From the NCBI GenBank assembly GCA_964520885.1, contig CAZFQD010000001.1, positions 1 to 52,571 of the forward strand: 52,571 nucleotides of DNA, given 5' to 3'. The translations under genes and the position numbers were made by a program. This document shows, one piece after another, positions 1,925-40,479 of this stretch (positions are counted from its first letter, which is position 1; each line of letters starts with the position of its first letter). Source of the DNA: an uncultured Oscillospiraceae bacterium (GTDB lineage Bacteria > Bacillota > Clostridia > Oscillospirales > SIG519). Below the pieces are notes generated by a model, which made no database searches, was not told where the DNA came from, and saw nothing but the letters and a program-made list of their open reading frames with translations.

Positions 1925-1961
1925 TATAATTAAGATATATTTAGTTAAATGGGGGATGATT

Positions 1962-4900
1962 ATGAAAATTAATAAAAAACTAATAAAAATAGTGTCAATT
2001 AATTTACTTACCCTTGTTTTTATATTTAGCAATATTTTTGCATCCTTTGTTATTGTTTCAGGAGAACAGGTAACGGTTAATGAAGTTATAAATATGATTG
2101 ACCAATTGCCAAATACTTACTCAGGGTTGCCATTAGTAAATGGTGAAATAGATGAGATTACTTATTCAACAAATGCTTTGCCGTTTATAAAAGATACTTC
2201 TGTTGCTTTTGAGGGAATTAATCCAATTAAGATTACCTCTGAGTCTGGTGGCAGTGATGAAACTACTTTCGGCAAAACATTTGCCTCTTCGCAAGATTTA
2301 TCCGATTTAGATAATATTGAAATGTTGCTTTGGTTTTATGAACAAAATCCTGAATTATATTTAAGCAGTTTTAGAATTGACTTAGTAACATCAGCGGGTA
2401 ATTATTTTTATAAGTATGTTGATGGTTCATATTGGAAAAGATGCCCCGGTGCATCAAGAATAAGATATAATATATCAGAATTTAAGATATATGGAAATCC
2501 GGATTTATCTAATATCAATAGTTTTAACTTGCGGATAAAAGGCGTTGACTATATGGTTGAGAGTTTAGGGCTTTTTTCCGTAACCTACAATGCAAGGAGC
2601 ACCCCAAAAGTAATACTTACCTTTGATGACGGATGGCAAGATAATTATGATAATGCTTTTCCTATTTTAGAAGCACAAGGTTTTAAAGGGGTATCTTATG
2701 CTGTAAGTGATTTCGTTCAAGGAAACGACCCTAATTATATGAGAAAACCAACCCTTGACATTCTTTACAATGCAGGCTGGGATATATCAAATCACTCAAA
2801 GCACCATGAAAATTATAAGATAACCCCCGGAGCAAATGCGGAATATATGGGGACAAGCTACAAAACTTGTCTTGACTTTCTTTTAGATTGTGGCTATGAG
2901 AGAAGTGCAAGATATGTTTGTTATCCGGATGGTAGTTTTGATGATGAATTAATTCCATATTTAAAGGATATAGGTATAGTTTCTGCAAGAACCACAAGAA
3001 TTGGCTATAATGCAGAGCCTTATACTGATTTGTACAAATTAAAACAGTATACAATTGGAGCTGTCACAACCTTTGGAGTTGACAATTCTTCTAATGATAT
3101 TAAAGCCTGTATTGACCGTGCAATTGCTTCGGGGCAAACTATGTCAGTAATGATGCACCGAGTTTCGCTTGATAACCAAATGAATATCTCAGGAGATAGC
3201 ACTAATTCTATAAAAACATCTGTAACTATGTTAACTCAAGTTGTTCAATATTTAAAAGATACAGGTGTTAAAGTTTGCACAATGAGTGAGTGGTATGATG
3301 AGCTACCCTCTATAAAAACATTAACTCTTTTTGATAAATATGATGTATATAATGCAAAAACAGCATATGACCAACTATATTCAGAGCAAAAAGCATTAGT
3401 TACAAATTATAAAAACCTTACCGACGCTATAATTAAAATAGAACAGCTTCAAGGTGAAGCATTGCAACAAGTTATTGATGAAATTTTTGCTTTGCCTTTA
3501 GTAGAAAACTTAACATTAACTGATAAATCGGCGATTATTAAAACAAGACAATATTATGAATTGTTAACGCAACAACAAAAGGAATTAGTTACTAATTATT
3601 CTATTCTTGTTGATGCCGAACAAGCAATTTATTATCTTGAAATAAATACTATTATAGAAAAAATAGATTTTTTGCCAAGTGTAGAAAATTTAGTTCTTTC
3701 GGATAAAACAAGAATAGCATCAATAAGAGAAAATTATAACAATTTAACTACCGAGCAAAAATTACTTGTAACAAATTATGATAAGCTTACAAGTTTAGAA
3801 GCTAAAATATTAATTCTTGAGGATAATGCAGTTTTTGAAATAATTGATTTAATTTATGCTTTGCCGGACATTCAATATTTGGTTCTTGAAGACAGAGCAT
3901 TCGTAGAAGAAGCAAGGGCAAAATATAATATATTAGATGATATTTTAAAAGTTCGTATTAGCAATTACGAAACACTTCAAAAAGCAGAATTATCAATTGA
4001 TAATCTTTTAGCAGAGCAAGTTGTTGATAAAATTAACGCATTACCAATTAACAATTCAGGTATAACTTTAATAAATGGGAAATTAGATGATATTACTTAT
4101 TCAACTAACACCTCGCAAATTATTAAAGACACTTCAGTTAGTTTTGAAGGAGCTTACCCTATTAAAATTACATCAGAAAGCGGGTCAAATATAACTCCAA
4201 CTACATTTGGAAAAACATTTGAATTTTCAAAAGATTTATCAGATTTAACTAATATCGAAATGTTACTTTGGTTTTATGAACAAAATCCCGAATTATATTT
4301 AAGCAGTTTTAGAATTGACTTAGTAACATCAGCGGGCAATTATTTTTATAAGTATGTTGATGGTTCGTATTGGAAAAGATGTCCCGGTGCATCAAGAATA
4401 AGATATAATATTTCAGAATTTTTAACAGTTGGTTCTCCCGATTTGTCTAATATCAATAGTTTTAACATACGAATTAAAGGTGCTGAAGGTATGATTGAGA
4501 GTTTGGGGATTTTTTCAATAGACTACAATGCAAGTAGCTCTCCAAAGGTAATTTTAACATTTGATGACGGATGGCAAGATAATTATGATAATGCTTTTCC
4601 TATTTTAGAAGCACAAGGTTTTAAAGGGGTATCTTATGCTGTAAGTGATTTCGTTCAAGGAAACGACCCTAATTATATGAGAAAACCAACCCTTGACATT
4701 CTTTACAATGCAGGCTGGGATATATCAAATCACTCAAAGCACCATGAAAATTATAAGATAACCCCCGGAGCAAATGCGGAATATATGGGGACAAGCTACA
4801 AAACTTGTCTTGACTTTCTTTTAGATTGTGGCTATGAGAGAAGTGCACGATTTTTAAGTTATACCGATAGCAATTCAGATGACGAATTAATTCCATATTT

Positions 4901-6158
4901 AAAAGATATGGGAATTGTTTCGGCAAGAACAACAAGAATAGGATATAATACAGAGCCCCCGGTGGACTTATATAAATTAAAGCAGATTACAATTGGGGCT
5001 GATACAACCTTTGGAGTTGACAATTCTTCTAATGATATTAAAGCTTGTATTGACCTTGCTATAGCCTCAGGGCAAACGATGGCAATAATGATGCATCGAG
5101 TTTCGCTTGATAGCCAAATGAATGCACCCGATGATTCTTCAAATTCAATAAAAACCTCAGTAACTATGTTAACTCAAGTTGCACAGTATTTAAAAGATAT
5201 AGGTGTTGAAGTTTGCACAATGAGTGATTGGTATAATGAATTAGAAACTACTGAAAAATTAACTCTTGCAAATAAAACAGAAGTGTCAGATGCAAGAGCT
5301 TCATATAATCAATTATCGCAAAGCCAAAAGGAATTTGTAACAAATTATAAAACTCTTTTAGTTGCCGAAACTATACTTTCACAATTATCTAATGAAGCCT
5401 TGCCAAAAGTAATTGATGAAATTTCGGCATTGCCTTCATTAGAAAACTTAAAGATAGAGCATAAATTTGCAATAGAAAAGGCAAGACAAGATTATGAATT
5501 TTTACCGTCAGAACAAAAGCCACTTGTTACAAACTATTCTAAACTTTTAGGAATAGAAAGCAAGTTTGAACAGCTTAATAATGCAGTAAATATTATTATT
5601 GGGTATGCCGACAATAATAACGCAAATTCATTGACCATTTCACAGTTATCAGCGGTTGGGGTAACCAAAGCTTATGAAGAAAATTTGGCAGAATACAAAA
5701 CTGAAATAGAAAACTCAACAGAAATTTCAGTAAACACAATTTCAAAAATCCAAGCAATAATTGACACAGTAAATACTCCAATAATAACTATAAATTCTTA
5801 TATAACTACCCAAACAAATCAAAATATTATAGTTACAGCTTCAACCAGTAAAGGAATACTAAATTCTTATAGTTATACTTTTACTAAAAATGGAAGTTTT
5901 GAATTTATTGCTACTTATAAAAATGAATATATTGTTAAAAAAACTGTTACAATTACAAATATAATTATTAAGGGCGATGTAACAGGTGATGGAATTGTAA
6001 ATGCACTTGATTTATTACAGCTTAAAAAACATCTTTTAGGCCAAGTATCAATAACAGGCAGTAAGGCTTTAGCGGCAGATGTAACAGGTGATGGCAAAAT
6101 AAACGCACTTGATTTGTTAAAACTTAAAAAATATCTTTTAGGTCAAGTTCAATTATGA
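1962..6158 (+). CDS. Secreted multidomain protein: 2 x [beta-rich module + NodB/CE4 polysaccharide deacetylase], helical linker repeats, Ig-like module, C-terminal dockerin
   Basis: Start moved to ATG 1962 (GGGGG RBS at 1951-1955; hydrophobic N-terminus MKINKKLIKIVSINLLTLVFIF). Two copies of TFDDGWQDNYD...SNHSKHH (NodB motifs 1-2). Repeated ~57-aa helical units contain QK.LVTNY. The C-terminus carries two DVTGDG.(I/V)NALDLL.LKK.LLG calcium-loop segments. Confidence 0.8.
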   Translation: MKINKKLIKIVSINLLTLVFIFSNIFASFVIVSGEQVTVNEVINMIDQLPNTYSGLPLVNGEIDEITYSTNALPFIKDTSVAFEGINPIKITSESGGSDETTFGKTFASSQDLSDLDNIEMLLWFYEQNPELYLSSFRIDLVTSAGNYFYKYVDGSYWKRCPGASRIRYNISEFKIYGNPDLSNINSFNLRIKGVDYMVESLGLFSVTYNARSTPKVILTFDDGWQDNYDNAFPILEAQGFKGVSYAVSDFVQGNDPNYMRKPTLDILYNAGWDISNHSKHHENYKITPGANAEYMGTSYKTCLDFLLDCGYERSARYVCYPDGSFDDELIPYLKDIGIVSARTTRIGYNAEPYTDLYKLKQYTIGAVTTFGVDNSSNDIKACIDRAIASGQTMSVMMHRVSLDNQMNISGDSTNSIKTSVTMLTQVVQYLKDTGVKVCTMSEWYDELPSIKTLTLFDKYDVYNAKTAYDQLYSEQKALVTNYKNLTDAIIKIEQLQGEALQQVIDEIFALPLVENLTLTDKSAIIKTRQYYELLTQQQKELVTNYSILVDAEQAIYYLEINTIIEKIDFLPSVENLVLSDKTRIASIRENYNNLTTEQKLLVTNYDKLTSLEAKILILEDNAVFEIIDLIYALPDIQYLVLEDRAFVEEARAKYNILDDILKVRISNYETLQKAELSIDNLLAEQVVDKINALPINNSGITLINGKLDDITYSTNTSQIIKDTSVSFEGAYPIKITSESGSNITPTTFGKTFEFSKDLSDLTNIEMLLWFYEQNPELYLSSFRIDLVTSAGNYFYKYVDGSYWKRCPGASRIRYNISEFLTVGSPDLSNINSFNIRIKGAEGMIESLGIFSIDYNASSSPKVILTFDDGWQDNYDNAFPILEAQGFKGVSYAVSDFVQGNDPNYMRKPTLDILYNAGWDISNHSKHHENYKITPGANAEYMGTSYKTCLDFLLDCGYERSARFLSYTDSNSDDELIPYLKDMGIVSARTTRIGYNTEPPVDLYKLKQITIGADTTFGVDNSSNDIKACIDLAIASGQTMAIMMHRVSLDSQMNAPDDSSNSIKTSVTMLTQVAQYLKDIGVEVCTMSDWYNELETTEKLTLANKTEVSDARASYNQLSQSQKEFVTNYKTLLVAETILSQLSNEALPKVIDEISALPSLENLKIEHKFAIEKARQDYEFLPSEQKPLVTNYSKLLGIESKFEQLNNAVNIIIGYADNNNANSLTISQLSAVGVTKAYEENLAEYKTEIENSTEISVNTISKIQAIIDTVNTPIITINSYITTQTNQNIIVTASTSKGILNSYSYTFTKNGSFEFIATYKNEYIVKKTVTITNIIIKGDVTGDGIVNALDLLQLKKHLLGQVSITGSKALAADVTGDGKINALDLLKLKKYLLGQVQL
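2622..2909 (+). repeat. Intragenic duplicate block, copy 1 (100% identical to 4560-4847)
   Basis: Base-by-base comparison: 288 nt identical at a constant offset of 1938 nt. Flanking sequence of the duplicated module is only ~75-96% identical. Confidence 0.95.
4560..4847 (+). repeat. Intragenic duplicate block, copy 2 (100% identical to 2622-2909)
   Basis: Same comparison as for copy 1; the block lies in the second NodB module. Confidence 0.95.
5973..6155 (+). other. Dockerin module (two EF-hand-like segments) at the C-terminus of the deacetylase protein
   Basis: GDVTGDGIVNALDLLQLKKHLLG ... ADVTGDGKINALDLLKLKKYLLG, the canonical duplicated dockerin pattern. Confidence 0.75.
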
Positions 6159-6172
6159 TGGGAGTGAAAAAT

Positions 6173-7948
6173 ATGAAAAAATTTATCTCTTTATTAGTAT
6201 CACTTTTAGTCTTTGGTTCAACATTAATGTTACCATCCTTTGCAACCTCTAAAAGCACAGTTATTTCATTGGTTCCCACAAATACAACTGTTAGAATAGG
6301 CGATACTATTACAATTACAGGTAAATTTAATGGAAATGCAATGGTGGGAACATTTAATGTTTATGTAAAATACAATGTCACACAATTACAATATAAAAGT
6401 GTTGAGGGTATCTCACCTTCAATAAAAGCCGGCGAACTTGATGCTGTTAGTAGTAGTGGTAGCATACAACTTTTATACCTTGATGCTGATGGTGGCGAAA
6501 CGGGTATACTATCTGCAAATGCTTTTAAGTTAACTTTTAAAGTGGTTGGCGGAAATGTTGGAGATACTATTTCTGTAAATACACAAGTTGATACAGTAGG
6601 CGATGTAAACGTAACTGAAGTGGAAACATCGGTAGTTGCTGCTACAATGAAAATAGCCGCACCACTTTCAACAAATAATTATCTAAGTAGTTTAAGCATA
6701 GATAACGGCACTCTTTCACCTTACTTTAAAAAAAGTGTAACTACTTATAATGTTTCTGTGCCGTTTACTGTTTCAAAGTTAAATGTAAATGCAAAAGCCG
6801 AGGACACTAATTCAAAAGTTTCTATAAATAACCCAACTCTTACACCTAATTCAACCACAAATATTACTGTGTTAGTTACTGCTCAAAATGGTGCTAAAAA
6901 AACTTATACAATTAAGGTGGCAAGAGCCAAAGACCCTAATTATCAGCAAAGTAGCAATAATTATCTTTCAAGTATAACAGTTAATCTTAGTATGCTTTCT
7001 CCAATTTTTAATAAAGATGTAACAAGTTATGTAGTTTGGTTGCCATATGAAACGGATAATATTGTGGTTGCAGGCACTGCCGAAAACAACAAAAGCACAG
7101 TAAGTGTTATCGGTGGTAGCAACTTAGAAGCGGGTAAAGATAATACTATTACACTTGTTTGCACAGCAGAAAATGGGGATGTTAAAACATACACCATAAT
7201 TGCTAAAAGAGCGTCAGAAGATTTTAGCCAAACTCCAACGCCAACGGGAACTCCAACCTCTTTAGATATTGAAAAGATTAAAAATGAAATCTCAGTTGCA
7301 CAAAAATCTCAAGTTAGCAAGACAGTAAATGTTGATTTAAGTAATAGCGGTTCAAAACTACTTGACAATTTATTTTTTAACCAACTTTCAAGTAGTAAAG
7401 ATGTAATAGTAAATATAAATTTAGGTGGAGCAAAAATAGTATTTGAGGGCAAAGAAACAACAGTTCTATCAGAGCAAAAAACCTATGATTTTTCATATGT
7501 TAATAATAGCCAATATAAAGATATAATGATAAAAGATGTAGGTAGTGAAAACGATATATTTACATATTCATTTGCTTATCACGGAGACTTGCAAGGATTT
7601 GCAACATTTAATATTTACACTAATTTTGTTTCTGGCGATAAGGTTAATGTTTATAAGTATGATGCAGAAAAACCACAATATATTTTAATTGCCCAAAACA
7701 TAACTGTTGGCACAGGTGGTGTGGTTACATACATTAATAACTCTTGCTCAGATTATTTAATTACAAAAAATACAATTGCAAATGCTTTAAAATCCGATGT
7801 TATTGCAAAACAGGTTTTGCAAAACACAAGTGATGATTTTTTATTAAATATAGTAATATTTGCTGTAATATGTGTATTAATTTTAGCATTAGGTATTTTT
7901 ATTGGATATAATATTAAAGTCAATAGAACACAAAACAATATAATTTAA
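6173..7948 (+). CDS. Membrane-anchored cohesin-domain protein with two cadherin-like beta-sandwich repeats
   Basis: Start moved to ATG 6173 (GGGAG RBS 6160-6164; signal peptide MKKFISLLVSLLVFGSTLMLPSFA). aa ~35-170 show a cohesin-like pattern (RIGDTITITGKFNGNAMVGTFNVYVKYN..LQYKSV; FKLTFKVVGGNVGDTISV). Two NNYLSS(L/I)..G.LSP.F...VT.Y.V.(V/L)P ... KTYTI units follow. There is a TP-rich linker and one C-terminal TM helix (IVIFAVICVLILALGIFIGY). Confidence 0.65.
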   Translation: MKKFISLLVSLLVFGSTLMLPSFATSKSTVISLVPTNTTVRIGDTITITGKFNGNAMVGTFNVYVKYNVTQLQYKSVEGISPSIKAGELDAVSSSGSIQLLYLDADGGETGILSANAFKLTFKVVGGNVGDTISVNTQVDTVGDVNVTEVETSVVAATMKIAAPLSTNNYLSSLSIDNGTLSPYFKKSVTTYNVSVPFTVSKLNVNAKAEDTNSKVSINNPTLTPNSTTNITVLVTAQNGAKKTYTIKVARAKDPNYQQSSNNYLSSITVNLSMLSPIFNKDVTSYVVWLPYETDNIVVAGTAENNKSTVSVIGGSNLEAGKDNTITLVCTAENGDVKTYTIIAKRASEDFSQTPTPTGTPTSLDIEKIKNEISVAQKSQVSKTVNVDLSNSGSKLLDNLFFNQLSSSKDVIVNINLGGAKIVFEGKETTVLSEQKTYDFSYVNNSQYKDIMIKDVGSENDIFTYSFAYHGDLQGFATFNIYTNFVSGDKVNVYKYDAEKPQYILIAQNITVGTGGVVTYINNSCSDYLITKNTIANALKSDVIAKQVLQNTSDDFLLNIVIFAVICVLILALGIFIGYNIKVNRTQNNII

Positions 7949-8448: not shown

Positions 8449-8517
8449 ATAAAAGTTAAAGAATAAAAGGAGGGCAGAATAGAACTTTAACTTAAAATTA
8501 AATAATAGAATATTTAA

Positions 8518-8672
8518 AGCGCCAGAACCGAAATTTTTTATCGGTTGACGAGGAAAGGGATTATCGAAATTATCGGCGGATACCCTTCGGCTATTTGCGT
8601 AATGGTCGTTAGGCTTTTTGTAAAAATTATGGGTAACCATAAAACAAAGCAAAAGCCAATACTACGCAATTT
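8518..8672 (+). ncRNA. glmS ribozyme: glmS ribozyme (GlcN6P-dependent self-cleaving riboswitch)
   Basis: Conserved core strings in order: A|GCGCCAGAAC, CCGA..TCGG hairpin, GGTTGACGAGGA, TATCGAAATTATCGGCGGATACCC, and closing helix TTGCGTA...TACGCAA. It lies immediately 5' of glmS. Confidence 0.85.
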
Positions 8673-12503: not shown

Positions 12504-12540
12504 AACCATAAACTTTTTTATTTCATATATTATTATTAAT

Positions 12541-12641
12541 AACTGAGCAGGCGATGAGTTTAATTACTCGTGGGGCTGGGCCTTTAAGGGCAACAGGAAT
12601 ATACCTGTGGGACAGAAATGTGTTTCACAAGGTATTTTTTT
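12541..12641 (+). promoter_or_regulatory. Structured 5' leader with intrinsic terminator (candidate metal riboswitch or attenuator)
   Basis: G-rich blocks GTGGGGCTGGGCC, GGGCAACAGG and TGGGACAG. Terminator ATACCTGTG...CACAAGGTAT plus T-run (12601-12641). Its 5' arm can instead pair with ACAGG at 12593-12597. Confidence 0.4.
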
Positions 12642-12682
12642 ATACTCAAAAATTAATTTTAATTTTTTTGGAGGGGAAAAGC

Positions 12683-15217
12683 GTGTTAGAAAATATTATT
12701 ATTGGTTTAACAAGTGATAAGGCTAAAGAATTACAAATAAAATACGGAAAAAACCAACTTACTATAGAAAAAAAAGAAACATTTTTTCATAAAATTATTG
12801 AAGTTATAAAAGAGCCAATGTTTATTTTGCTTATGGTTGCCGCTGTTATATACTTCATTTTAGGGGAACCAAGAGACGGAGCAATTATGCTTGTTTTTGT
12901 TGTGGGCATAATTAGCATTGATGTAATTCAAGAATGGAAAACAGATAAAACCTTAAAGGCTTTAAAGGATTTATCGGCACCACACATAAAAGTAATTAGA
13001 GATGGAAATGAAATATTAATAAATAGTTGCGATTTAGTGCCAAATGATTTAATGCTAATTTCGGAAGGGGTAAAAATTCCTGCTGACGGAGTTGTAATTA
13101 GAGCCAATGACCTTTGCGTTGACGAATCTTCCTTAACCGGTGAAGCTTTAGGAGTTTGGAAAGTAATTACTGAAAAAGTTAATAAAGAGGACAAGGATTA
13201 TTGGCGAAAAGATTATTGCTATGCAGGAACTCTTGTAACGAGTGGTAGTGCAACTATATTAGTAGACAAAATCGGCTTAGAAACAGAGTATGGAAAAATT
13301 GGTGCTAATGTTGCTAATGTTGAAGAAACGATAACTCCATTGCAAAGGCAAACGGGTGCGTTAGTAAAACTAAGTGCTGTAATAGCCGCAATTTTGTTCG
13401 CATTTGTAGCAATAATAACCTTTTTCAACATTCTCGACCATATTTTGAAAGATAGAATTATTGAGAGTATATTGTCCGGCATAACCTTATCTATGGCTAT
13501 GATACCGGAGGAATTTCCTGTTATTTTAACTGTATTTTTATCAATGGGTGCATGGCGATTGGCAAAAAAGCAATCTCTTGTTAGAAAACTTCCATCGGTT
13601 GAAACACTTGGTATGGTTTCAGTTTTATGTGTTGACAAAACAGGAACAATAACACTTAATAAAATGACAGTTAAGGATACATTTCCTTTTAATTGTGACC
13701 AAAAAGAATTGAGTTTTATTATGGGTTTAGGTTGTGAAACTAATACTTATGACCCTATGGAAAAGGCTATGCTTTCTCATTGCGAACAATTGGGAATTAG
13801 CAAAGAAACTCTTTTTAGTAATGAACTAGTTAAAGAGTATTCTTTCACAAATGAAACAAAGATTATGGGACATATATGGAAAATGCCTAATGAAATATTA
13901 GTTGCGGCTAAGGGTTCGCCCGAGAAAATAATTTCTCTTTGCAATTTATCTTATGATGAGGAAAAAAACATAACCGACAAAATAACGCAAATGTCTAAAG
14001 AAGGACTAAGGGTAATTGCAGTCGCAAAAATGTCATTAAAAGACAAAAATAACATTCCCGAAACTCTACTTGAATGCAAAATGCAGTTGTGTGGTATAGT
14101 TGGACTGGCGGACCCTCCAAGAGAAACAATTAAGGATGATATAAAGCGATGCTCAAAAGCCGGAGTTCGCGTGGTTATGATAACCGGCGACAATGGAATT
14201 ACAGCAAGTTCTATTGCAAAACAAATAAAAATGCCTAATTGCGATGAAATTATAACCGGCGATGAACTTAATAAAATGAGCGATGAGCAGTTAAGAGAAA
14301 AAGTAAAGAGAGTAAACATTTTTTCAAGGGTTATCCCTGAGCATAAAATGAGAATTGTTAAGGCTTTCAAGGAAAATGGGCAAGTAGTTGCTATGACAGG
14401 CGACGGAGTAAACGACGCTCCAGCACTAAAAAATGCCGATATAGGAATTGCTATGGGCAAAAGAGGTTCGCAGGTTTCAAGAGAAGCGGCAGATTTAATT
14501 TTACTTGATGATAATTTTTCCACAATAGTTGATACAATTAAAGACGGAAGAAGAATATATGATAATATAAGAAAAGCAATAGGCTATGTTTTTACAATTC
14601 ATATTCCTATTGCACTTGCTTCACTTTTTGCACCATTATTGAAAATCGAACCTGCTTTATTAATGTTTTTACCATTGCATATTGTTTTGCTTGAATTAGT
14701 TATAGACCCTACCTGCTCAATTGTTTTGGAAAGACAGCCTGCCGAAAAAGATATAATGGAAAGACCACCTCGAAAAACTAATGAAAAAATACTAAATTTT
14801 TATATTTTAGCAAAGAGTTTTATTCAAGGGTTAGTGATTTTTGCGACTTCCTTCGGAACATATTTTGCAATAACAATAAGCAACCCTGAAAATCAATACC
14901 TCGCACGCACTATGGGACTTTGTATAATTTTACTCTCCAATATCTTTTTAGTTCAAGTTAACAGTTCAAATAGCGATTTCTTTTTTGTTTCATTTAATCG
15001 TTTAAAAAAAGACAGAGTAATGTGGATAGCAAATGGGGCAATAATATTTGGACTGCTAATTATGTTATACACGCCACTTTCAGCTTTATTAAAATTAACT
15101 CCTCTATCCTTTTCGCAATTAGCATTGGTTGCAATAATAGCCTTTGCTTCTGTAATGTGGTTTGAAATTGTAAAGTTAGTAAAATATATTATTAGGAATA
15201 AACATAGAAGTAATTAA
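12683..15217 (+). CDS. Cation-transporting P-type ATPase (type II, Ca2+/Mn2+-ATPase-like)
   Basis: GTG start after a GGAGGGG RBS. Phosphorylation motif CVDKTGTITLNKM, plus MITGDN and TGDGVNDAPALKNADIGIAMG. About 10 TM segments. Confidence 0.9.
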   Translation: MLENIIIGLTSDKAKELQIKYGKNQLTIEKKETFFHKIIEVIKEPMFILLMVAAVIYFILGEPRDGAIMLVFVVGIISIDVIQEWKTDKTLKALKDLSAPHIKVIRDGNEILINSCDLVPNDLMLISEGVKIPADGVVIRANDLCVDESSLTGEALGVWKVITEKVNKEDKDYWRKDYCYAGTLVTSGSATILVDKIGLETEYGKIGANVANVEETITPLQRQTGALVKLSAVIAAILFAFVAIITFFNILDHILKDRIIESILSGITLSMAMIPEEFPVILTVFLSMGAWRLAKKQSLVRKLPSVETLGMVSVLCVDKTGTITLNKMTVKDTFPFNCDQKELSFIMGLGCETNTYDPMEKAMLSHCEQLGISKETLFSNELVKEYSFTNETKIMGHIWKMPNEILVAAKGSPEKIISLCNLSYDEEKNITDKITQMSKEGLRVIAVAKMSLKDKNNIPETLLECKMQLCGIVGLADPPRETIKDDIKRCSKAGVRVVMITGDNGITASSIAKQIKMPNCDEIITGDELNKMSDEQLREKVKRVNIFSRVIPEHKMRIVKAFKENGQVVAMTGDGVNDAPALKNADIGIAMGKRGSQVSREAADLILLDDNFSTIVDTIKDGRRIYDNIRKAIGYVFTIHIPIALASLFAPLLKIEPALLMFLPLHIVLLELVIDPTCSIVLERQPAEKDIMERPPRKTNEKILNFYILAKSFIQGLVIFATSFGTYFAITISNPENQYLARTMGLCIILLSNIFLVQVNSSNSDFFFVSFNRLKKDRVMWIANGAIIFGLLIMLYTPLSALLKLTPLSFSQLALVAIIAFASVMWFEIVKLVKYIIRNKHRSN

Positions 15218-33605: not shown

Positions 33606-35762
33606 TTATTTTAAATTCAAACGATAAGTTTCCTTTAATGAATTGTAATCATAAGTAATTAAAACTCCACGAATAGAAAGATAAACATTATTATTAATAT
33701 ACAACACTCTTGAATTATTATAATAAGAGTTTTCATTTAAATTGTCAGGCAATAATCTGCCTTTTTCAACAAGTTTATTATCTTTTACCGATACCATAAT
33801 AGCACCCTCACGATAAATCCCCCCATTGTTGTAATCAATGTTACCATCAGTTCCATTAATATATGCCGGGAAAAGTGCAGTGGTTTTATTATTCCACCAA
33901 ACAAAAGCTCTTGGATTATATTGTGCTTCGGACGATGAACCAACTCCACCAAAAACTAAATTATCAAGTTCTTTTGGTTTTTTAGGGTCTGAAACATCAA
34001 ATAATGATGCCTTTAAGCCACCAACTCTATTTCCAACTACTGTTTCTTTGCCATCTTTATCCTTTGAATATATTTCTACAGTATCAACACCAATACCCAT
34101 TAAGAGATTAGCACTAACAGGATGAAGATAATTAGAAAATCCGGGAATTTTTAGTTCGCCTAATACCTTTGGTGCATTAGGATTTGATAAATCAATAACA
34201 AATAATGGGTCCATATTTTTAAATGTTACAATATACGCTGTTTTGCCCATAAATCGAACTGATTTAATGGTTTCACCGACAGCCAAGCCTTCAATTTTTC
34301 CAGCCAATTGCAAATTGCTATTTAATACATACAAATTATTAGTTGCCCCATTTTGTCCCCACTTTGTAGTGGCAATTCTAAAAGTGCTACCAAATTCATC
34401 CATACTATATTGATTTAATATTTGTCCGGGAACCTCGCCTGCTACAATAAATTTTACAGAAGTTTCGGTAATATCAAATTTCATAATTACTGTTCCTTCT
34501 TCGGCAGGTGCAATTATTTCAGATTTAATTGATGGATTTATCTCTTTAATTCCATCAACCGCAGTTACTGTTCCATCTGCTGATGTAACAGTAGTTTGAG
34601 ATGATAATTTTTGTTGTCTGTAATAAGGTGAAACAATATACAAAGAACTATTACTCATATATAAATTACTGCCTGCACCTAAGATTGTTTCAACTGAAAC
34701 GGGGTTATTATTATTTATATCAAATATAGAAATTAATAGAAAGTTTTGAGAAATATTTTCAGGACAATATTGAATACTTTCTGCTTTTATTACAATGTTA
34801 TCTTTTCCCTTAACACTATCAGAATAAAAGGGTAAAATCTGTTGAGGTTGCACTTGCGAAATTGGATAATGTTGTATATATTTATTAGTTACAATATAAA
34901 ATTTGCCATCCTTTTCACGAGTGGATAAAATACTACCATCAAAGGTTAATTCCCGATTAAGAACTGGCTTTTCTTTATTTGAAACATCGTAAACTTTAAC
35001 CATTGTAGTTTGATAACCCATATAACGCATATCGGCAGTTTTGCCCATTGAAGGAGAATCAATAGCAGGTTCAATCTGAGCGAAAGTGTCAGGCTCACCT
35101 TCAATTTGAGTTGATTTTGAACCAATAATAGTAAGTAAATTGCCCTTTAAATAAATTTCACTAATATATTCATTAGTGGCTAAAACTATACTGCCAATAT
35201 TTTTAGGCTGTGGATTAGCCGCAACAATAAAAACCTTGTTGCCACTAACAATATAAATAAACTCACCATCATTTTTGATAATATCTCCCTCGTCAACACC
35301 GCTAACCTGAGTGTTAGTGGAAGAATAGTCTGCACTGTCAGATGTTGTTTGTGCTTCAGGTGCACCTGCAACTGATTTTGCATTATCTGTTGTGACCGAT
35401 TGAGATTGAGCATAATCGTATGTTGTGGTATTGCCTTCATATAAAACACCCATACTTTTTAGCAAACTAACCATCTCAGCATAAGTTTTAAATTTTGGTA
35501 GTTTAACTTCTTGATTAATTTTAATAATTGCAGGACTACTTTTTAAAGTTTCTCCCGAAATTAAAGGAACTTTATCAGCAGTATTACTTGAATTTTCCGA
35601 ATTGCTTTCTGATTGCGTTATTGAACCGCTTGAATTTGAGTTTTGAATTGAAGTATTTGCCTTTTTAAACCATCCAAAAACATTCGCCAAAATTAAAATT
35701 CCAAAAACAATAGTCATAGCCGTTGAAGATGCTAAAATAATTAATAATCTTTTTTTATTCAT
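33606..35762 (-). CDS. Secreted beta-propeller domain protein (Beta_propel family)
   Basis: Start at ATG 35762 (GGAGG RBS; MNKKRLLIILASS signal anchor). Family-typical TNTQVSGVDEGDIIKNDGEFIYIV, and a C-terminal propeller with DPLFVIDLSNP. Confidence 0.8.
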   Translation of the reverse strand: MNKKRLLIILASSTAMTIVFGILILANVFGWFKKANTSIQNSNSSGSITQSESNSENSSNTADKVPLISGETLKSSPAIIKINQEVKLPKFKTYAEMVSLLKSMGVLYEGNTTTYDYAQSQSVTTDNAKSVAGAPEAQTTSDSADYSSTNTQVSGVDEGDIIKNDGEFIYIVSGNKVFIVAANPQPKNIGSIVLATNEYISEIYLKGNLLTIIGSKSTQIEGEPDTFAQIEPAIDSPSMGKTADMRYMGYQTTMVKVYDVSNKEKPVLNRELTFDGSILSTREKDGKFYIVTNKYIQHYPISQVQPQQILPFYSDSVKGKDNIVIKAESIQYCPENISQNFLLISIFDINNNNPVSVETILGAGSNLYMSNSSLYIVSPYYRQQKLSSQTTVTSADGTVTAVDGIKEINPSIKSEIIAPAEEGTVIMKFDITETSVKFIVAGEVPGQILNQYSMDEFGSTFRIATTKWGQNGATNNLYVLNSNLQLAGKIEGLAVGETIKSVRFMGKTAYIVTFKNMDPLFVIDLSNPNAPKVLGELKIPGFSNYLHPVSANLLMGIGVDTVEIYSKDKDGKETVVGNRVGGLKASLFDVSDPKKPKELDNLVFGGVGSSSEAQYNPRAFVWWNNKTTALFPAYINGTDGNIDYNNGGIYREGAIMVSVKDNKLVEKGRLLPDNLNENSYYNNSRVLYINNNVYLSIRGVLITYDYNSLKETYRLNLK

Positions 35763-36006
35763 AATAAATTCCTCCAATTTATTTAGTTTTTGCTCTTTAA
35801 TTTAATCTACAACTATTTAGACTATAAAAATAGTAAAAAGTTCCCGTTTATTAAAAAGTATTTCATATTAAGATTATATCATATTAATTTTAATGTGCAA
35901 CACAAAATGGCACTCTCGTTTTTTGTTGACTAAGGTATATTTTTGTGATAATATTAAACAAATTAAAAAGATTTTCAATTGTTTTTCGGAAGGAATTGAG
36001 TTTTAA

Positions 36007-36708
36007 ATGGTAAACCAACTTTCAAGACTATTAATTTTATTAAGACAAGAAAAGGGAATATCACAAAAAAAAGCCGCAGATGCTTTGGAAATTTCTCAAG
36101 CCTTGCTATCCCATTATGAAAAGGGAATTAGAGAATGTGGCTTGGATTTTTTGATAAAGGTTGCTAATTTTTATAATGTGTCCACCGATTACTTATTGGG
36201 CAGAACAGCCGATAGACAAGGCGCCATTTTTTCATCAGAAGATATCCCCGATGAAAATTCAATGGGAAAGGAAAATATTTATAAGGGTAGTGTTTTGTCT
36301 ACCTTAAATAAAAGATTAATATTTAATTCATTAAACATTCTTTTTGACCTTTTGCAAAAAACCAACAATAAGCAAATAGTAAATGAGGTTTCCACTCATA
36401 TAATGCTTTCGGTTTATAGAAATTTTCGCTATATATATTGCTTAAATGAGGATAATCCAACAAGCCTTTTTGCCGCAGATAATGCTGTTTTTTCTCATTT
36501 ATGTAACTGTGCAGAAAATATGGCTGAGTTAAATGTTAGTTGTTTAACTAATTATAAACAATCAAAAAGTATTAAACCAATAAATATTGAAAAAGAAAAA
36601 TTTACTTTAAATCAACAAGAAATAGAGAGGCTTTATCCTTTGTATGCGTCGTCATTGCTAAATTTAATTCAAAATTGCGAAACAAAAATGAATGTCAGAA
36701 AAAAGTAA
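36007..36708 (+). CDS. XRE-family HTH transcriptional regulator with uncharacterised C-terminal domain
   Basis: N-terminal HTH LRQEKGISQKKAADALEISQALLSHYEKG, then ~160 aa with no recognised motif. Confidence 0.8.
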   Translation: MVNQLSRLLILLRQEKGISQKKAADALEISQALLSHYEKGIRECGLDFLIKVANFYNVSTDYLLGRTADRQGAIFSSEDIPDENSMGKENIYKGSVLSTLNKRLIFNSLNILFDLLQKTNNKQIVNEVSTHIMLSVYRNFRYIYCLNEDNPTSLFAADNAVFSHLCNCAENMAELNVSCLTNYKQSKSIKPINIEKEKFTLNQQEIERLYPLYASSLLNLIQNCETKMNVRKK

Positions 36709-37065: not shown

Positions 37066-38781
37066 TTAGCTAATTGTTTGTATTCCCAAAAGATGTTTTT
37101 TTATCGCAATTAAATCGCTTATAGAAATATTCCCGTTGTCATAAATATCTCCGGCAATTTTATTAATACCATTCAAAAAATTTATTCCCAACAAGTGGTT
37201 TTTAACAGCTGCTAAGTCCAAAATATCAATAATATTATCCCCATTAGTATCACCCAATTTATAAATATTTGCTATTGTAACAGTTTTATTTGTTACATTT
37301 CCGGCATCATCGGTTGCCACAAATTCAAAGATACCGTTTTCAGCAAAAGTATGAGTTGGAGCATTTAATGAACCTTCATTTGTTGAGGCAGTTACTGTAA
37401 TATTTTTATTTGTTGGAGTTGTATTATAATCTGCAAGTGTTATCATAGGTGCCACCTTATCAATATTATTTATTGTTACTGTTATTGTTATAACATTGCC
37501 CACATCATCTGTTGCCACAAAATCAAAGCTGCCATTTTCAGTAAATGTATGGCTTGTTTCATTTAATGTACCTTCATTAGCCGCAGCTGTAACAGTAACA
37601 TTTTGATTTGTCGGAGTGTTAACATAACTATTTATTGTAATACTCACTGAAGGTATTACTACGAACTGTATATTTTTACTTGCTGCAAATGTCTTAGCAT
37701 ATGAATTGTCAGCCCCATATATAACTACTTTTGTGCTACCGAAAAATGCATTTGGTGCAATACTTGTTACACTATTAGGAATTGCAATTTTAATTAAATT
37801 AGCACAACTGCTAAATGTATCGCTACTTATACTTGTTACACTATTGGGAATGGTTATTGTTGTTATGCCGGAGCATAGGTAAAATGCTCCATCTCCTATA
37901 CTTGTTACACTATTTGGAATTGTTATTGATGTTATACCACAACTACTAAATGTATTATTTCCAATACTTGTCACACTATTGGGAATGGTTATTGATTTTA
38001 AACTAATACATTGATAAAAAGCAAACTCTCCCAAAATTGTTACACTATTTGGAATGATATAGCAAGTTGTTGTTTTCCCTGCAGGGTATTGAATAATTAT
38101 TGTCTTATCTTTGTTAAACAATACTCCGTCGGTGCTTGAATAAAATAAATTATTTGAGTCCACATTAATTGAGGTTAAGACGGGAGAAAAATAAAATGCT
38201 TGTTTTCCTATACTTGAAACACTACTTGAAATATCTACTGTTGTTAATTTTAAACAACCAGAAAACGCATAATCTCCAATGATTGTTACACTATTTGGAA
38301 TTGTTATTGATGTTAAACTACTGCAAGATGAAAATGCATAATTACTGATATTTGTTACACTATTTGGTATTATTATTGAGGTTAATTTTCTGCATCCATA
38401 AAATGCATAGATCCGAATATTTTTTACGCTATTTCCTATTGTTATTGAAGTTATTCCACTACATTGTAAAAATGCATAGTTATTTATATTTATTACACTA
38501 TCCGGAATTATTACTGAGGTGATACTGGTTTTATTTTCAAACGCATTATATCCAATTTCAGTTACCGGTTTCCCTGCAATTGTATCAGGTATAGTAACCG
38601 CACCACCGGTTCCCGTATAACCTGTAATTCTAACATTAGCACCATTATCAATTAACGCATAATTAAAATTCCCACTTGATAATGCAAACGATGGCAATGC
38701 CAAACTCGACACCAAAGAAATCGCCAAAAGTAATGTTAATAAAACCGATACTGCTTTTTTAATAATATTCACTTTTTTCAT
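37066..38781 (-). CDS. Secreted BspA-type leucine-rich-repeat protein with two Ig-like modules and C-terminal dockerin
   Basis: Signal peptide. About 12 repeats of IPNSVT.I...AF..C..LTSITI. Two TN(Q/K)N(V/I)TVTA...HTF.ENG.F.FVATDD.GN modules. Dockerin GDTNGDNIIDILDLAAVKNHLLG...GDIYDNGNISISDLIAIKKHLLG. Confidence 0.8.
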   Translation of the reverse strand: MKKVNIIKKAVSVLLTLLLAISLVSSLALPSFALSSGNFNYALIDNGANVRITGYTGTGGAVTIPDTIAGKPVTEIGYNAFENKTSITSVIIPDSVININNYAFLQCSGITSITIGNSVKNIRIYAFYGCRKLTSIIIPNSVTNISNYAFSSCSSLTSITIPNSVTIIGDYAFSGCLKLTTVDISSSVSSIGKQAFYFSPVLTSINVDSNNLFYSSTDGVLFNKDKTIIIQYPAGKTTTCYIIPNSVTILGEFAFYQCISLKSITIPNSVTSIGNNTFSSCGITSITIPNSVTSIGDGAFYLCSGITTITIPNSVTSISSDTFSSCANLIKIAIPNSVTSIAPNAFFGSTKVVIYGADNSYAKTFAASKNIQFVVIPSVSITINSYVNTPTNQNVTVTAAANEGTLNETSHTFTENGSFDFVATDDVGNVITITVTINNIDKVAPMITLADYNTTPTNKNITVTASTNEGSLNAPTHTFAENGIFEFVATDDAGNVTNKTVTIANIYKLGDTNGDNIIDILDLAAVKNHLLGINFLNGINKIAGDIYDNGNISISDLIAIKKHLLGIQTIS

Positions 38782-39129: not shown

Positions 39130-40479
39130 TCAATTAACTAAAACCCCATTATCATTTTGCAGTAAAATCAATATATCCTCTTCATTTCCATTTTTTGCGT
39201 TTATATATATTAACATATTTTTATCGTCAATAGTTTTACATTTAAATTCATAGCAAAGTCGTTCAACTTTTCCCGGAGTTGGTATAATACATAGCTCACT
39301 TCCTTCAATTTTTAAAGAAGGGCTAACTTTTTTTTCTGCTTGTGCTTTGGTTAAAATTGGAGTTACATCTCTATTTGTAGTATGATTCATTAAATATCCA
39401 TTTGCTTCAAAACTCATAATTTTACCATCATTTAAAGAAACACCCACCTTAATTAAATCGGGATAACATATTGCATTATCTAATACATAAGCGAAATTAA
39501 TTGTTAAAATATTATTGCCTTCATAATAATAGCTTTCTTTCATATTTTTATAATTCTTGCTAATTAAAAACCCTTGTGCTTTCTTAATTGCTTGCTCAAA
39601 ACTAATATTTTTAGCGGTAATAGCAGCACTATTTAACATACTATAAACAAATCCGCCCTGCCGAGTAATTTCAATTGAAACAGTTCCACTATTAAACGAA
39701 AAGGTGGGAATTAAACCATTAGTTTCGCCTACATAAACGATATTTTCAATATTTACATTTAAAAATTCCGCCGCCTTTTTTTTAGCATTTACATTAGAAA
39801 ATTGAGGTTGATTTTTTAGCATTGTAGGGGATAAGTTTTCTAAATGCTCGCTAAATGGTCCATCATAAATTAATTTTGGGTAACTTGCAATATCCTCTTC
39901 AATTTTAGCCATTTCACTTGTTAAACTTATGGCATTCTCATTGCCGTTTTTTTCAGTGTTTTTAATTAAATTTAATAGTTCATTATTTTTTAGATTTCCA
40001 TTTTGCACCTCGCTTTGCAAGAAACTAATTTGTGTTGCTAAAATTGTGGCTTCATCCGAAAGGTTTTTCAAAGTTTCTCTATCTTGTTCGTTAATTACTC
40101 CACCCTCTAAAACTTTCCTCGATAAAGAATTCACATACTCACCTGTTTGAGATAAAAATTTTGCTGTTCCCATTAAATTAGAAGCATAAAAAGGCAATGC
40201 CGAAATGCTTTCCTTTGCAGCACTGGTTGTTTTCCAAATTTGACTTGCCAAACCCACTAACTGCAATGAAGAATTTGCATATAGGCCCTTTTGCAAAGTG
40301 GCATCAATAGTATTCATATATTCCGATAATTGTGCAAATGAGCCTTGATAGGTATAGCTAATATATCGTCTGTAAATTGAAGATTGAACAAAAAAGGTAA
40401 GTGCAAAACCAGCTATAACTGCCATTAAGGATACAGTATAGCTTATTATTCTAATTAATTGTCTTCTTGTTAAATGCAT
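39130..40479 (-). CDS. ypeB: Spore germination protein YpeB (PepSY-domain)
   Basis: 449 aa. N-terminal TM anchor, the YpeB-type N-domain (SFAQLSEYMNTIDATLQKGLYANS) and C-terminal PepSY repeats. Confidence 0.8.
   Translation of the reverse strand: MHLTRRQLIRIISYTVSLMAVIAGFALTFFVQSSIYRRYISYTYQGSFAQLSEYMNTIDATLQKGLYANSSLQLVGLASQIWKTTSAAKESISALPFYASNLMGTAKFLSQTGEYVNSLSRKVLEGGVINEQDRETLKNLSDEATILATQISFLQSEVQNGNLKNNELLNLIKNTEKNGNENAISLTSEMAKIEEDIASYPKLIYDGPFSEHLENLSPTMLKNQPQFSNVNAKKKAAEFLNVNIENIVYVGETNGLIPTFSFNSGTVSIEITRQGGFVYSMLNSAAITAKNISFEQAIKKAQGFLISKNYKNMKESYYYEGNNILTINFAYVLDNAICYPDLIKVGVSLNDGKIMSFEANGYLMNHTTNRDVTPILTKAQAEKKVSPSLKIEGSELCIIPTPGKVERLCYEFKCKTIDDKNMLIYINAKNGNEEDILILLQNDNGVLVN

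Follow-up and report, generated by a model that had tools for sequence, protein, structure and literature searches.

Described Cohesin-Dockerin Systems and the Present Locus

In the classical cellulosome, a scaffoldin that carries multiple cohesins and a cellulose-binding carbohydrate-binding module (CBM) collects dockerin-bearing glycoside hydrolases (GHs) that act on the plant cell wall. The subject of this report is a module of two adjacent genes, here called ORF1 and ORF2, in a 52,571-nt stretch of DNA from an uncultured Oscillospiraceae bacterium (contig CAZFQD010000001.1; the whole stretch is referred to as the window), in which a putatively secreted deacetylase of the CE4 family ending in a dockerin is encoded beside a predicted membrane-anchored protein with a single cohesin. 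In contrast to the cellulosomal arrangement, ORF2 has one cohesin and no CBM, no other cohesin is found in the window, and the dockerin proteins of the window are a pair of CE4 domains in one polypeptide and a leucine-rich repeat (LRR) protein.

The nearest described counterparts of ORF2 are the 'nonSLH-anchoring scaffoldins', predicted transmembrane (TM)-anchored single-cohesin proteins of Lachnoclostridium sp. MSJ-17, H. luporum, C. cibarium, Ruminococcus difficilis and Ruminococcus sp. HUN007/JE7B6, which are presumed to fix dockerin proteins directly to the membrane, whose partners have been described as unclear, and some of which occur in non-cellulolytic organisms with few dockerin-bearing GHs (PMC11557425; PMC13463774). 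ORF2 has in common with them the single cohesin and the C-terminal TM helix but differs, by their descriptions, in its defined layout of cohesin, two cadherin-like domains, optional juxtamembrane domain and TM helix, in the partner gene immediately upstream, and in the covariation of cohesin and dockerin sequences described below.

Adjacent genes for a single-cohesin and a single-dockerin protein are also found in Cellulosilyticum lentocellum, where those for ClcC and ClcD lie ∼40 bp apart and are apparently co-transcribed, and where heterodimer formation has been shown experimentally (PMC13487519). ORF2 and ORF1 resemble this pair in gene adjacency and in matching one cohesin with one dockerin; ClcC, however, is a CBM3-X2-cohesin protein without a membrane or wall anchor and ClcD a GH5 cellulase with cellulose as its target, whereas the present module combines a membrane anchor with CE4 cargo. 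OlpA and OlpC of C. thermocellum (3ul4, 4dh2), which are among the fold matches of ORF2, are like it in using a monovalent type I cohesin to place a single dockerin-bearing enzyme on the cell surface. They attach to the wall by SLH domains and serve cellulosomal enzymes, whereas ORF2 uses a TM helix and has non-cellulosomal cargo.

Non-cellulosomal use of cohesins and dockerins is shared with the glycosidase and toxin complexes of Clostridium perfringens (2jh2, 2w1n), with Archaeoglobus fulgidus (2xdh), with the Ruminococcus bromii amylosome and with the Limousia mucinolysome, and peptidases and other non-GH cargo carry dockerins in non-cellulosomal systems (PMC12997984). In these examples, however, the cohesins sit on scaffoldins that carry several of them or on the enzymes themselves, anchoring in Limousia is by sortase (LPxTG), and no account of them describes two genes that make up a cassette with a TM anchor. 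TM-anchored single cohesins, an adjacent cohesin/dockerin gene pair and non-cellulosomal uses are already known; no published description of the cassette reported here, of its cargo spectrum or of the covariation was found in a literature search that covered subscription journals and older reviews in part, so that an earlier account may exist.

Organization of the Two-Gene Module

The longest reading frame of ORF1 spans positions 1956-6158 of the forward strand. The ATG at 1962 is preferred as the start because GGGGGA (1950-1955) lies 6 nt ahead of it, at proper spacing for a ribosome-binding site, which gives a gene at 1962-6158 (+) and a product of 1398 amino acids (aa). A promoter-like site detected by consensus scan (TTTACT, 17 nt, TG-TATAAT; 1902-1930, +) is located upstream and is a consensus match only. 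The protein begins with a signal-peptide-like sequence, MKINKKLIKIVSINLLTLVFIFSNIFA, contains two stretches matching Polysacc_deac_1 (PF01522, E 8.5e-29) and ends in an immunoglobulin (Ig)-like domain (5775-5969, +) followed by a type I dockerin.

The ORF1 stop codon (TGA, 6156-6158) is separated by 14 nt from the ATG of ORF2 at 6173 on the same strand, with a ribosome-binding site, GGGAG (6160-6164, +), 8 nt ahead of that ATG. A scan of the intergenic DNA found no terminator, and no terminator-like site was detected downstream of ORF2. Because of the short spacer, its ribosome-binding site and the lack of a terminator between the genes, the two are read as an operon.

An earlier note, made from the sequence alone, had described this module as a twin polysaccharide deacetylase with a canonical duplicated dockerin, followed 15 nt later by a gene for a signal peptide, one cohesin-like domain, two cadherin-like repeats, a Thr/Pro linker, a ∼180-aa domain and a TM helix. 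Nearly all of this is borne out: the Cohesin, Dockerin_1, Polysacc_deac_1 and Cadherin-like profiles are all matched within the two genes, and every element of ORF2 is present. The measurements change slightly, to 14 nt for the spacer and 190 aa for the domain, and 'twin' needs to be amended, since the two CE4 copies are an intragenic tandem duplication of which the second lacks a family-conserved motif.

The Predicted Membrane-Anchored Cohesin Protein

ORF2 (6173-7948, +) encodes a predicted membrane-anchored monovalent cohesin protein of 591 aa. A signal peptide (aa 1-25) precedes a cohesin domain at aa 27-168 (6251-6676, +), which is followed by two cadherin-like beta-sandwich domains at aa 168-252 and 262-347 (6674-7213, +; PF12733 in two stretches, E 3.3e-12, with corresponding strands in the structure model), a Thr/Pro linker, SQTPTPTGTPTS, at aa 352-363 (7226-7261, +), a juxtamembrane domain at aa 363-553 (7259-7831, +), and a C-terminal TM helix, FLLNIVIFAVICVLILALGIFIGY (aa 556-579), with a basic tail, NIKVNRTQNNII (together 7838-7945, +). 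Signal peptide, cohesin and C-terminal TM helix constitute the layout of a monovalent membrane-anchoring scaffoldin, and all 15 family members that were read are alike in this and end in a TM helix and basic tail.

Profile and fold agree on the identity of the N-terminal domain. When aa 1-176 were scanned alone, PF00963 was matched with 29.6 bits, above its gathering score of 24.1 (E 8.9e-7, profile positions 4-139 of 139), and most members of the ORF2 family have a precomputed PF00963 match. An AlphaFold2 model built on 40 homologues has a mean predicted local distance difference test score (pLDDT) of 89.9, which exceeds 90 in the cohesin domain and falls below 50 at aa 352-359 of the linker. 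In a Foldseek search of the PDB, ∼146 residues of the cohesin domain were superimposed on 2vn6_A, 6kgf, 1g1k, 1aoh, 4dh2 and 5nrm with target-normalized template modelling (TM) scores of 0.75-0.83 and root-mean-square deviations of 2.0-2.5 Å. The ∼30 top PDB matches are almost all cohesins, with identities of up to 23% (to the type I cohesin of C. cellulolyticum), and comprise type I cohesins of C. cellulolyticum, C. thermocellum, C. acetobutylicum and A. cellulolyticus, those of OlpA and OlpC, and non-cellulosomal cohesins of A. fulgidus and C. perfringens. The nine-stranded beta-sandwich of a cohesin is thus confirmed in the model, and a domain that failed to match cohesin profiles or folds, the outcome named in the earlier note as telling against its proposal, is not what was found.

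The juxtamembrane domain is confidently predicted when modelled by itself (pLDDT 90.9, predicted TM score 0.88), and neither a Pfam family nor a PDB fold was matched by it (best Foldseek E 0.012, TM score <0.4). Weak matches to CBM32 and amylase-C domains were dismissed as identifications on the basis of TM scores below 0.4. At least 15 clusters at 50% identity cover the domain among long-form anchors, with cargo that includes S8 protease, GH73 and CE4 proteins.

The Dockerin and Its Covariation with the Cohesin

The dockerin of ORF1 (5970-6140, +; PF00404, E 1.3e-18, aa 1339-1395, profile positions 1-57 of 57) has the two 22-residue repeats of type I, each with an F-hand calcium loop of the form D-x-[DN]-x-[DN]-G-x-[IV]-x-x-x-D and a helix, the loops being DVTGDGIVNALD and DVTGDGKINALD (5976-6011 and 6078-6113, +). 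It matches 23 solved dockerins, including the type I dockerins 2ccl_B, 1ohz_B and 2vn5_B from cohesin complexes. Positions 10/11 of both repeats are Ala-Leu, which we take to be the signature of C. cellulolyticum-type dockerins and which is consistent with the C. cellulolyticum cohesin being closest to that of ORF2 by sequence. With repeats so nearly identical, the dockerin could bind in two modes.

In a comparison of 76 pairs, the identity between cohesins correlates with that between the adjacent dockerins at r = 0.83, a value reached in none of 2000 Mantel permutations. With the cadherin-like region of the same anchor used as a proxy for shared history, the partial correlation of cohesin with dockerin is 0.66, whereas that of the cadherin-like region with dockerin, given the cohesin, is 0.09, and the covariation holds without the window's subgroup. 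By eye, the dockerins that go with the window's cohesin subgroup (the window, L001-L005 and L086/L087) have helices of the form LDLLxLKKxLLGQ, and those that go with main-group cohesins have SITDFIQIKAHILGK. The ORF1 dockerin has 76% identity with the L005 dockerin and 57-59% with the dockerins of L001-L003, where the cargo proteins are S8 proteases, whereas the closest CE4 homologue of ORF1 (P0121, see below) has a dockerin of a different type; the dockerin therefore tracks the anchor rather than the cargo.

A Conserved Cassette with Exchangeable Cargo

Relatives of ORF2 number in the hundreds, most of them of ∼400 aa without the juxtamembrane domain and a minority of 575-720 aa like ORF2 itself. 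When one genome per species was scanned, a relative was encoded in 175 species genomes, all of them metagenome-assembled genomes (MAGs), from Oscillospiraceae, Acutalibacteraceae, Faecousia, Eubacteriaceae and related Clostridia; the 175 do not include the genome of the window itself, and the best match to ORF2 there is 50% identical. The MnmG protein of the window's genome has no database match above 81% identity, and its identity to entries from Petroclostridium and Ruminococcaceae is ∼71%. An exhaustive search of representative sequences was swamped by giant proteins with 10-30 cadherin-like repeats and gives no clean family size.

In all six relatives that were looked up individually, a dockerin-bearing gene or gene fragment lies directly upstream of the anchor gene. 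The arrangement extends to 76 of 81 related loci having upstream DNA, as a same-strand neighbour with a C-terminal dockerin in 70 (median gap of 12.5 nt before the anchor) and as a divergent neighbour with an N-proximal dockerin in 6; a frameshifted anchor was found in one further locus. Since a dockerin is carried by only 6 of the 525 remaining genes in these loci that encode 200 aa or more, the adjacency is not attributable to chance. Pfam Dockerin_1 is detected in 73 of 75 neighbour proteins. The window's module, with a dockerin gene immediately beside an anchor gene, belongs to the same cassette.

The cargo was surveyed as Pfam families in the 75 neighbours of anchor genes. Big_3 (30) and Big_2 (23) are the most frequent, followed by LRR_5 (15), Glug (11), Peptidase_S8 (10), Glucosaminidase (GH73; 7), Polysacc_deac_1 (6) and Transglut_core (4), with GH25, CHAP, SASA, GDSL and CBM_4_9 as further families; family-wide, the cargo consists mostly of proteases, peptidoglycan enzymes and Ig/LRR proteins. 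The six CE4 neighbours include divergent Faecousia genes (L073 confirmed individually, the others by cluster membership). On the sequences compared, this is a cassette of Oscillospirales and Eubacteriales-type Clostridia in which dockerin and anchor stay together and the cargo is exchanged. The CE4 display module proposed in the earlier note is present as described, but as one member of this widespread cassette, the cargo of which is usually an S8 protease, GH73, LRR or Ig protein.

Two narrower views of the cargo were rejected. An S8 protease, encountered in the first four loci, is not the usual cargo, as it is found in 10 of 75 neighbours in the wider census, and the long-form anchors of Eubacteriaceae carry GH73 rather than CE4 cargo, CE4 being found in the divergent Faecousia genes. 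In L073, L074, L077, L080, L082 and L084, from Faecousia and related MAGs, the divergent partner has its dockerin at aa ∼100-160, followed by Big_2 and CE4 domains. An X-module-like conserved segment of ∼70 aa is common to most main-subgroup cargo proteins, where it stands just ahead of the dockerin (P..ITS..Y......ISKI..GTT...LL....KVY.G....VGTGM.V), in the position where ORF1 has its Ig-like domain.

The Tandem CE4 Deacetylase

The duplication within ORF1 has a period of 1938 nt, and its units, which are 75% identical over 528 aa, each consist of an N-domain of ∼170 aa, a CE4 domain and helical repeats of ∼45 aa. The N-domain and CE4/NodB domain of unit 1, assigned by Pfam and motif alignment, occupy 2076-3311 (+), and the same two domains of unit 2, located by self-comparison, occupy 4011-5249 (+). 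Self-comparison also delimited the helical repeats between the units (LP..ENL.L.DK..I...R..Y..L...QK.LVTNY..L; 3312-4010, +) and a shorter set after unit 2 (∼5250-5600). Neither a Pfam family match for the helical repeats nor a CBM family match in Pfam for the N-domain was obtained; the repeats may serve as a spacer.

Both the profile and the CE4 motifs, that is MT1 (T)FDD, MT2 H(S/T)xxH, MT3 R..YP and MT5 LxH, identify ORF1 as a CE4 protein. In unit 1 these are represented on the forward strand by TFDDG (2619-2633), which begins a stretch identical in both copies (2619-2678), HSKHH (within 2787-2807), RYVCYPDGSFDD (motif 3, 2910-2945) and MMHRV (within 3144-3164). D10, D11, H66, H70 and H187 are invariant in an alignment of eight CE4 sequences comprising homologues and both copies; no sequence in it departs from the Asp-Asp, His-x3-His and MT5 His residues. 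The copies part at motif 3, where copy 1 retains the family consensus YPxGx[YF] as YPDGSF and copy 2 has diverged to RFLSYTDSNSDD (4848-4883, +), with YTDSNS at this position and loss of the conserved Pro, Gly and aromatic residue. Judged by its motifs, copy 1 is equipped with a complete catalytic set; in copy 2 the residues for metal binding and catalysis are intact, but with YPxG lost this copy may be impaired or altered in specificity. A tract of 270 nt is 100% identical between the units (2636-2905 = 4574-4843) and stops 5 nt short of motif 3, while the surrounding DNA is 60-90% identical, which suggests that the tract is probably the product of recent gene conversion.

The closest solved structure to the CE4 domain by sequence is 6dq3 (E 2e-5), that of PplD. 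PplD de-N-acetylates the wall-linkage N-acetylglucosamine (GlcNAc) of streptococci and, like IcaB and PgaB, belongs to the NodB2 class (PMC10967932). ORF1 has in common with these enzymes the Asp-Asp, His-x3-His and catalytic His motifs, but PplD, IcaB and PgaB have no dockerin, N-domain or tandem duplication and are tethered in other ways, and the similarity is far below equivalog level. The best NCBIfam matches of ORF1 are to IcaB at 43.2 bits, against a cut-off of 248.35, and to PgaB at 40.2 bits, against 321.9 (TIGR03933, TIGR03938), so that ORF1 is at best functionally like that class and not a member of it.

The combination of N-domain and CE4 domain is rare, with 15 matches among 5.8 billion proteins. 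The best of these, P0121, is 60% identical to the ORF1 unit and carries CE4, LRR_5 and its different dockerin. Its gene is one of five dockerin genes that directly follow one another (L085:4930-16082) and encode Big_3-Doc, CE4-LRR-Doc, GHL15-Doc, SpoIID-SH3-Big_3-Doc and DUF4832-Doc proteins; no cohesin gene was called within this stretch, and a SpoIID-type peptidoglycan enzyme bearing a dockerin is unusual. Three other homologues of the unit, P0123, P0124 and P0126, start straight at the N-domain with no obvious signal peptide, which suggests that the unit is also found in non-secreted or differently delivered proteins.

A Second Dockerin Protein

The other dockerin of the window belongs to a BspA-type LRR protein with two Ig-like domains encoded at 37066-38781 (-), with LRR_5 matched at E 1e-71 and Dockerin_1 at E 4.3e-10 (C-terminal dockerin, 37087-37257), in agreement with its description in the earlier note as an LRR adhesin-like dockerin protein. 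A simple dockerin loop pattern caught only the ORF1 dockerin; a hidden Markov model built from the family caught both and gave a total of exactly one cohesin and two dockerins in the window. The Ig-like and dockerin tail of the LRR protein is 44% identical to that of ORF1 over 140 aa. Its dockerin, however, is closest (51% identity) to those of L007 and L008, which are from cassettes with the other cohesin subtype, and has mixed repeats, ILDLAAVKNHLLG in the first, resembling the helix ALDLLQLKKHLLG of ORF1, and SISDLIAIKKHLLG in the second, with the SISD signature of the other group. A genuine dockerin and a shared tail speak for the idea that ORF1 and the LRR protein form one display system, and the dockerin subtype speaks against it. 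The LRR gene is neighboured by genes for a Beta_propel (PF09826) protein at 33606-35777 (-), an HTH_3 regulator at 36007-36708 (+) and the germination protein YpeB (see below).

Proposed Mechanism and Alternative Explanations

Pfam assignments, fold, gene adjacency and covariation agree on a putatively secreted CE4-dockerin protein encoded beside a single-cohesin TM anchor and unrelated to cellulose degradation. It is probable that ORF1 and ORF2 are a co-transcribed cognate dockerin-cohesin pair that tethers the CE4 deacetylase to the cell's own membrane, where a surface GlcNAc polymer is its likely substrate. In this scheme both proteins would be exported by Sec, and ORF2 would be held in the cytoplasmic membrane by its C-terminal TM helix (type I insertion), oriented so that its N-terminus faces outward and its basic tail the cytoplasm. 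The two cadherin-like domains, the Thr/Pro linker and the 190-aa juxtamembrane domain may form a stalk that holds the type-I-like cohesin off the membrane, from where it could capture the type I dockerin of ORF1 in a calcium-dependent manner. The large twin CE4 enzyme would then be kept on the surface of its producer rather than diffusing away. The resemblance of the CE4 domains to the PplD/IcaB/PgaB group points to de-N-acetylation of GlcNAc in a surface polymer, most likely a poly-N-acetylglucosamine (PNAG)-like exopolysaccharide, a wall polysaccharide or peptidoglycan, this being the weakest step of the scheme.

Several observations weigh against the scheme. The Pfam score of the cohesin is modest, the match being absent from a scan of full-length ORF2 and seen only for the isolated N-terminal 176 aa; 5 of the 81 related loci are without an adjacent dockerin gene; shared ancestry remains a partial confounder of the covariation, even with the cadherin-like region as a control; and the cohesin census covers only 52 kb, so that other cohesins may exist in the genome. 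Similarity of the CE4 domains to characterized enzymes is weak (E 2e-5 to 6dq3 and ∼40 bits where the IcaB and PgaB cut-offs exceed 240), and the substrate assignment is tentative for this reason.

Some of the same points would suit neighbours that are not cognate, with ORF1 docking on a scaffoldin elsewhere and ORF2 binding other dockerins, such as that of the LRR protein, or being itself an adhesin. The small part of the genome in view, the five loci in which an anchor stands without its dockerin gene, the Ig-dockerin module common to ORF1 and the LRR protein, and the readiness with which type I cohesins often accept many dockerins are all compatible with this. It is nevertheless improbable, given the ∼80-fold enrichment of dockerin genes at the adjacent position, a covariation that outlasts control for anchor history, the consistent pairing of two cohesin subtypes with two dockerin helix signatures, and the close spacing of the ORF1 stop and ORF2 start. 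A possibility that we regard as somewhat less plausible than its opposite, though by no means slight, is that the LRR protein also uses the ORF2 anchor, in competition or alternation with ORF1, which would make a display system with two cargo proteins. It has a genuine dockerin, the same Ig-dockerin tail and a like first-repeat helix (ILDLAAVKNHLLG and ALDLLQLKKHLLG), and LRR_5 is frequent among the cargo of the cassette family (15/75), but the cohesin subtype with which its nearest dockerins pair and the SISD signature of its second repeat point elsewhere, and its gene is 30 kb away on the opposite strand.

The tethering could also be as proposed and the enzyme act on foreign glycans, in a nutritional or antagonistic role, the candidates being chitin or chitooligosaccharides, acetylated plant xylan, and the peptidoglycan or exopolysaccharide of neighbours. 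CE4 includes chitin deacetylases and acetylxylan esterases (PMC5855634), the additional 170-aa domain on each CE4 unit could be a carbohydrate-binding module, long helical spacers would lengthen the reach of the enzyme, and sister cassettes with proteases, LRR adhesins, SASA, GDSL esterases and CBM_4_9 fit outward-facing roles. This is rather unlikely, as the best family and structure matches are to PNAG or wall-linkage de-N-acetylases, peptidoglycan enzymes occur in many sister cassettes (GH73 in 7, plus GH25 and CHAP) and the N-domain is without a CBM family match. Finally, the twin architecture might be suspected of being an assembly artefact from a repeated segment, as short-read assemblers can mis-join at a tract such as the 270 identical nucleotides. 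This can be given very little credence: outside the tract the units have diverged to 60-90% identity while staying in register over ∼1.3 kb, the frame is open throughout 4.2 kb, the units differ at specific motifs, and gene conversion accounts for the tract. The preferred interpretation is thus that the two proteins are cognate and that the deacetylase is held on its producer, to act on that cell's own surface.

Other Elements of the Window

A gene for the germination protein YpeB at 39130-40479 (-) supports the earlier suggestion that the organism is a spore-former. A glmS ribozyme (Rfam RF00234, 115 bits) can be detected at 8507-8667 upstream of glmS, and because of its position the TTG start at 8545 of a 664-aa reading frame is considered spurious, the start of GlmS likely being the methionine of MCGIVGY near 8728. 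A NiCo (nickel/cobalt) riboswitch (RF02683, 60 bits) at 12533-12617 overlaps the listed start of the 887-aa reading frame at 12554-15217. The gene presumably starts further downstream and serves in metal efflux or transport.

Biological Significance

We advance with considerable reserve, as a rather unlikely generalization, that the cassette is a general and previously undescribed device of wall-bearing Clostridia, in which a stalk with a private cohesin would hold envelope-remodelling enzymes (GH73, GH25, CHAP, CE4), proteases and adhesins at a fixed height in or above the wall, replacing the LysM, SLH or sortase tethers that are absent from these proteins. Co-evolving subtypes would keep the cassettes orthogonal, and the juxtamembrane domain of the long form, possibly of new fold, might add a regulatory or wall-binding function. 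This domain, confidently predicted and without a PDB match, is a target for structure determination, and if the predicted binding is true, the family would offer dozens of naturally co-evolved and possibly orthogonal cohesin-dockerin pairs for protein engineering.

The sequences examined suggest that Clostridia of the gut and other anaerobes of this class, at least 175 species and most of them uncultured, employ the cohesin-dockerin interaction, best known from cellulosomes, to tether proteins one-to-one to the membrane, with cargo that includes peptidoglycan hydrolases, deacetylases, proteases and adhesins. In characterized systems de-N-acetylation affects lysozyme resistance, charge and biofilm retention. 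If binding is as predicted, the tether would explain how large secreted enzymes are retained on the surface of these organisms, and would suggest that editing of their envelope is organized through cohesin-dockerin tethering.

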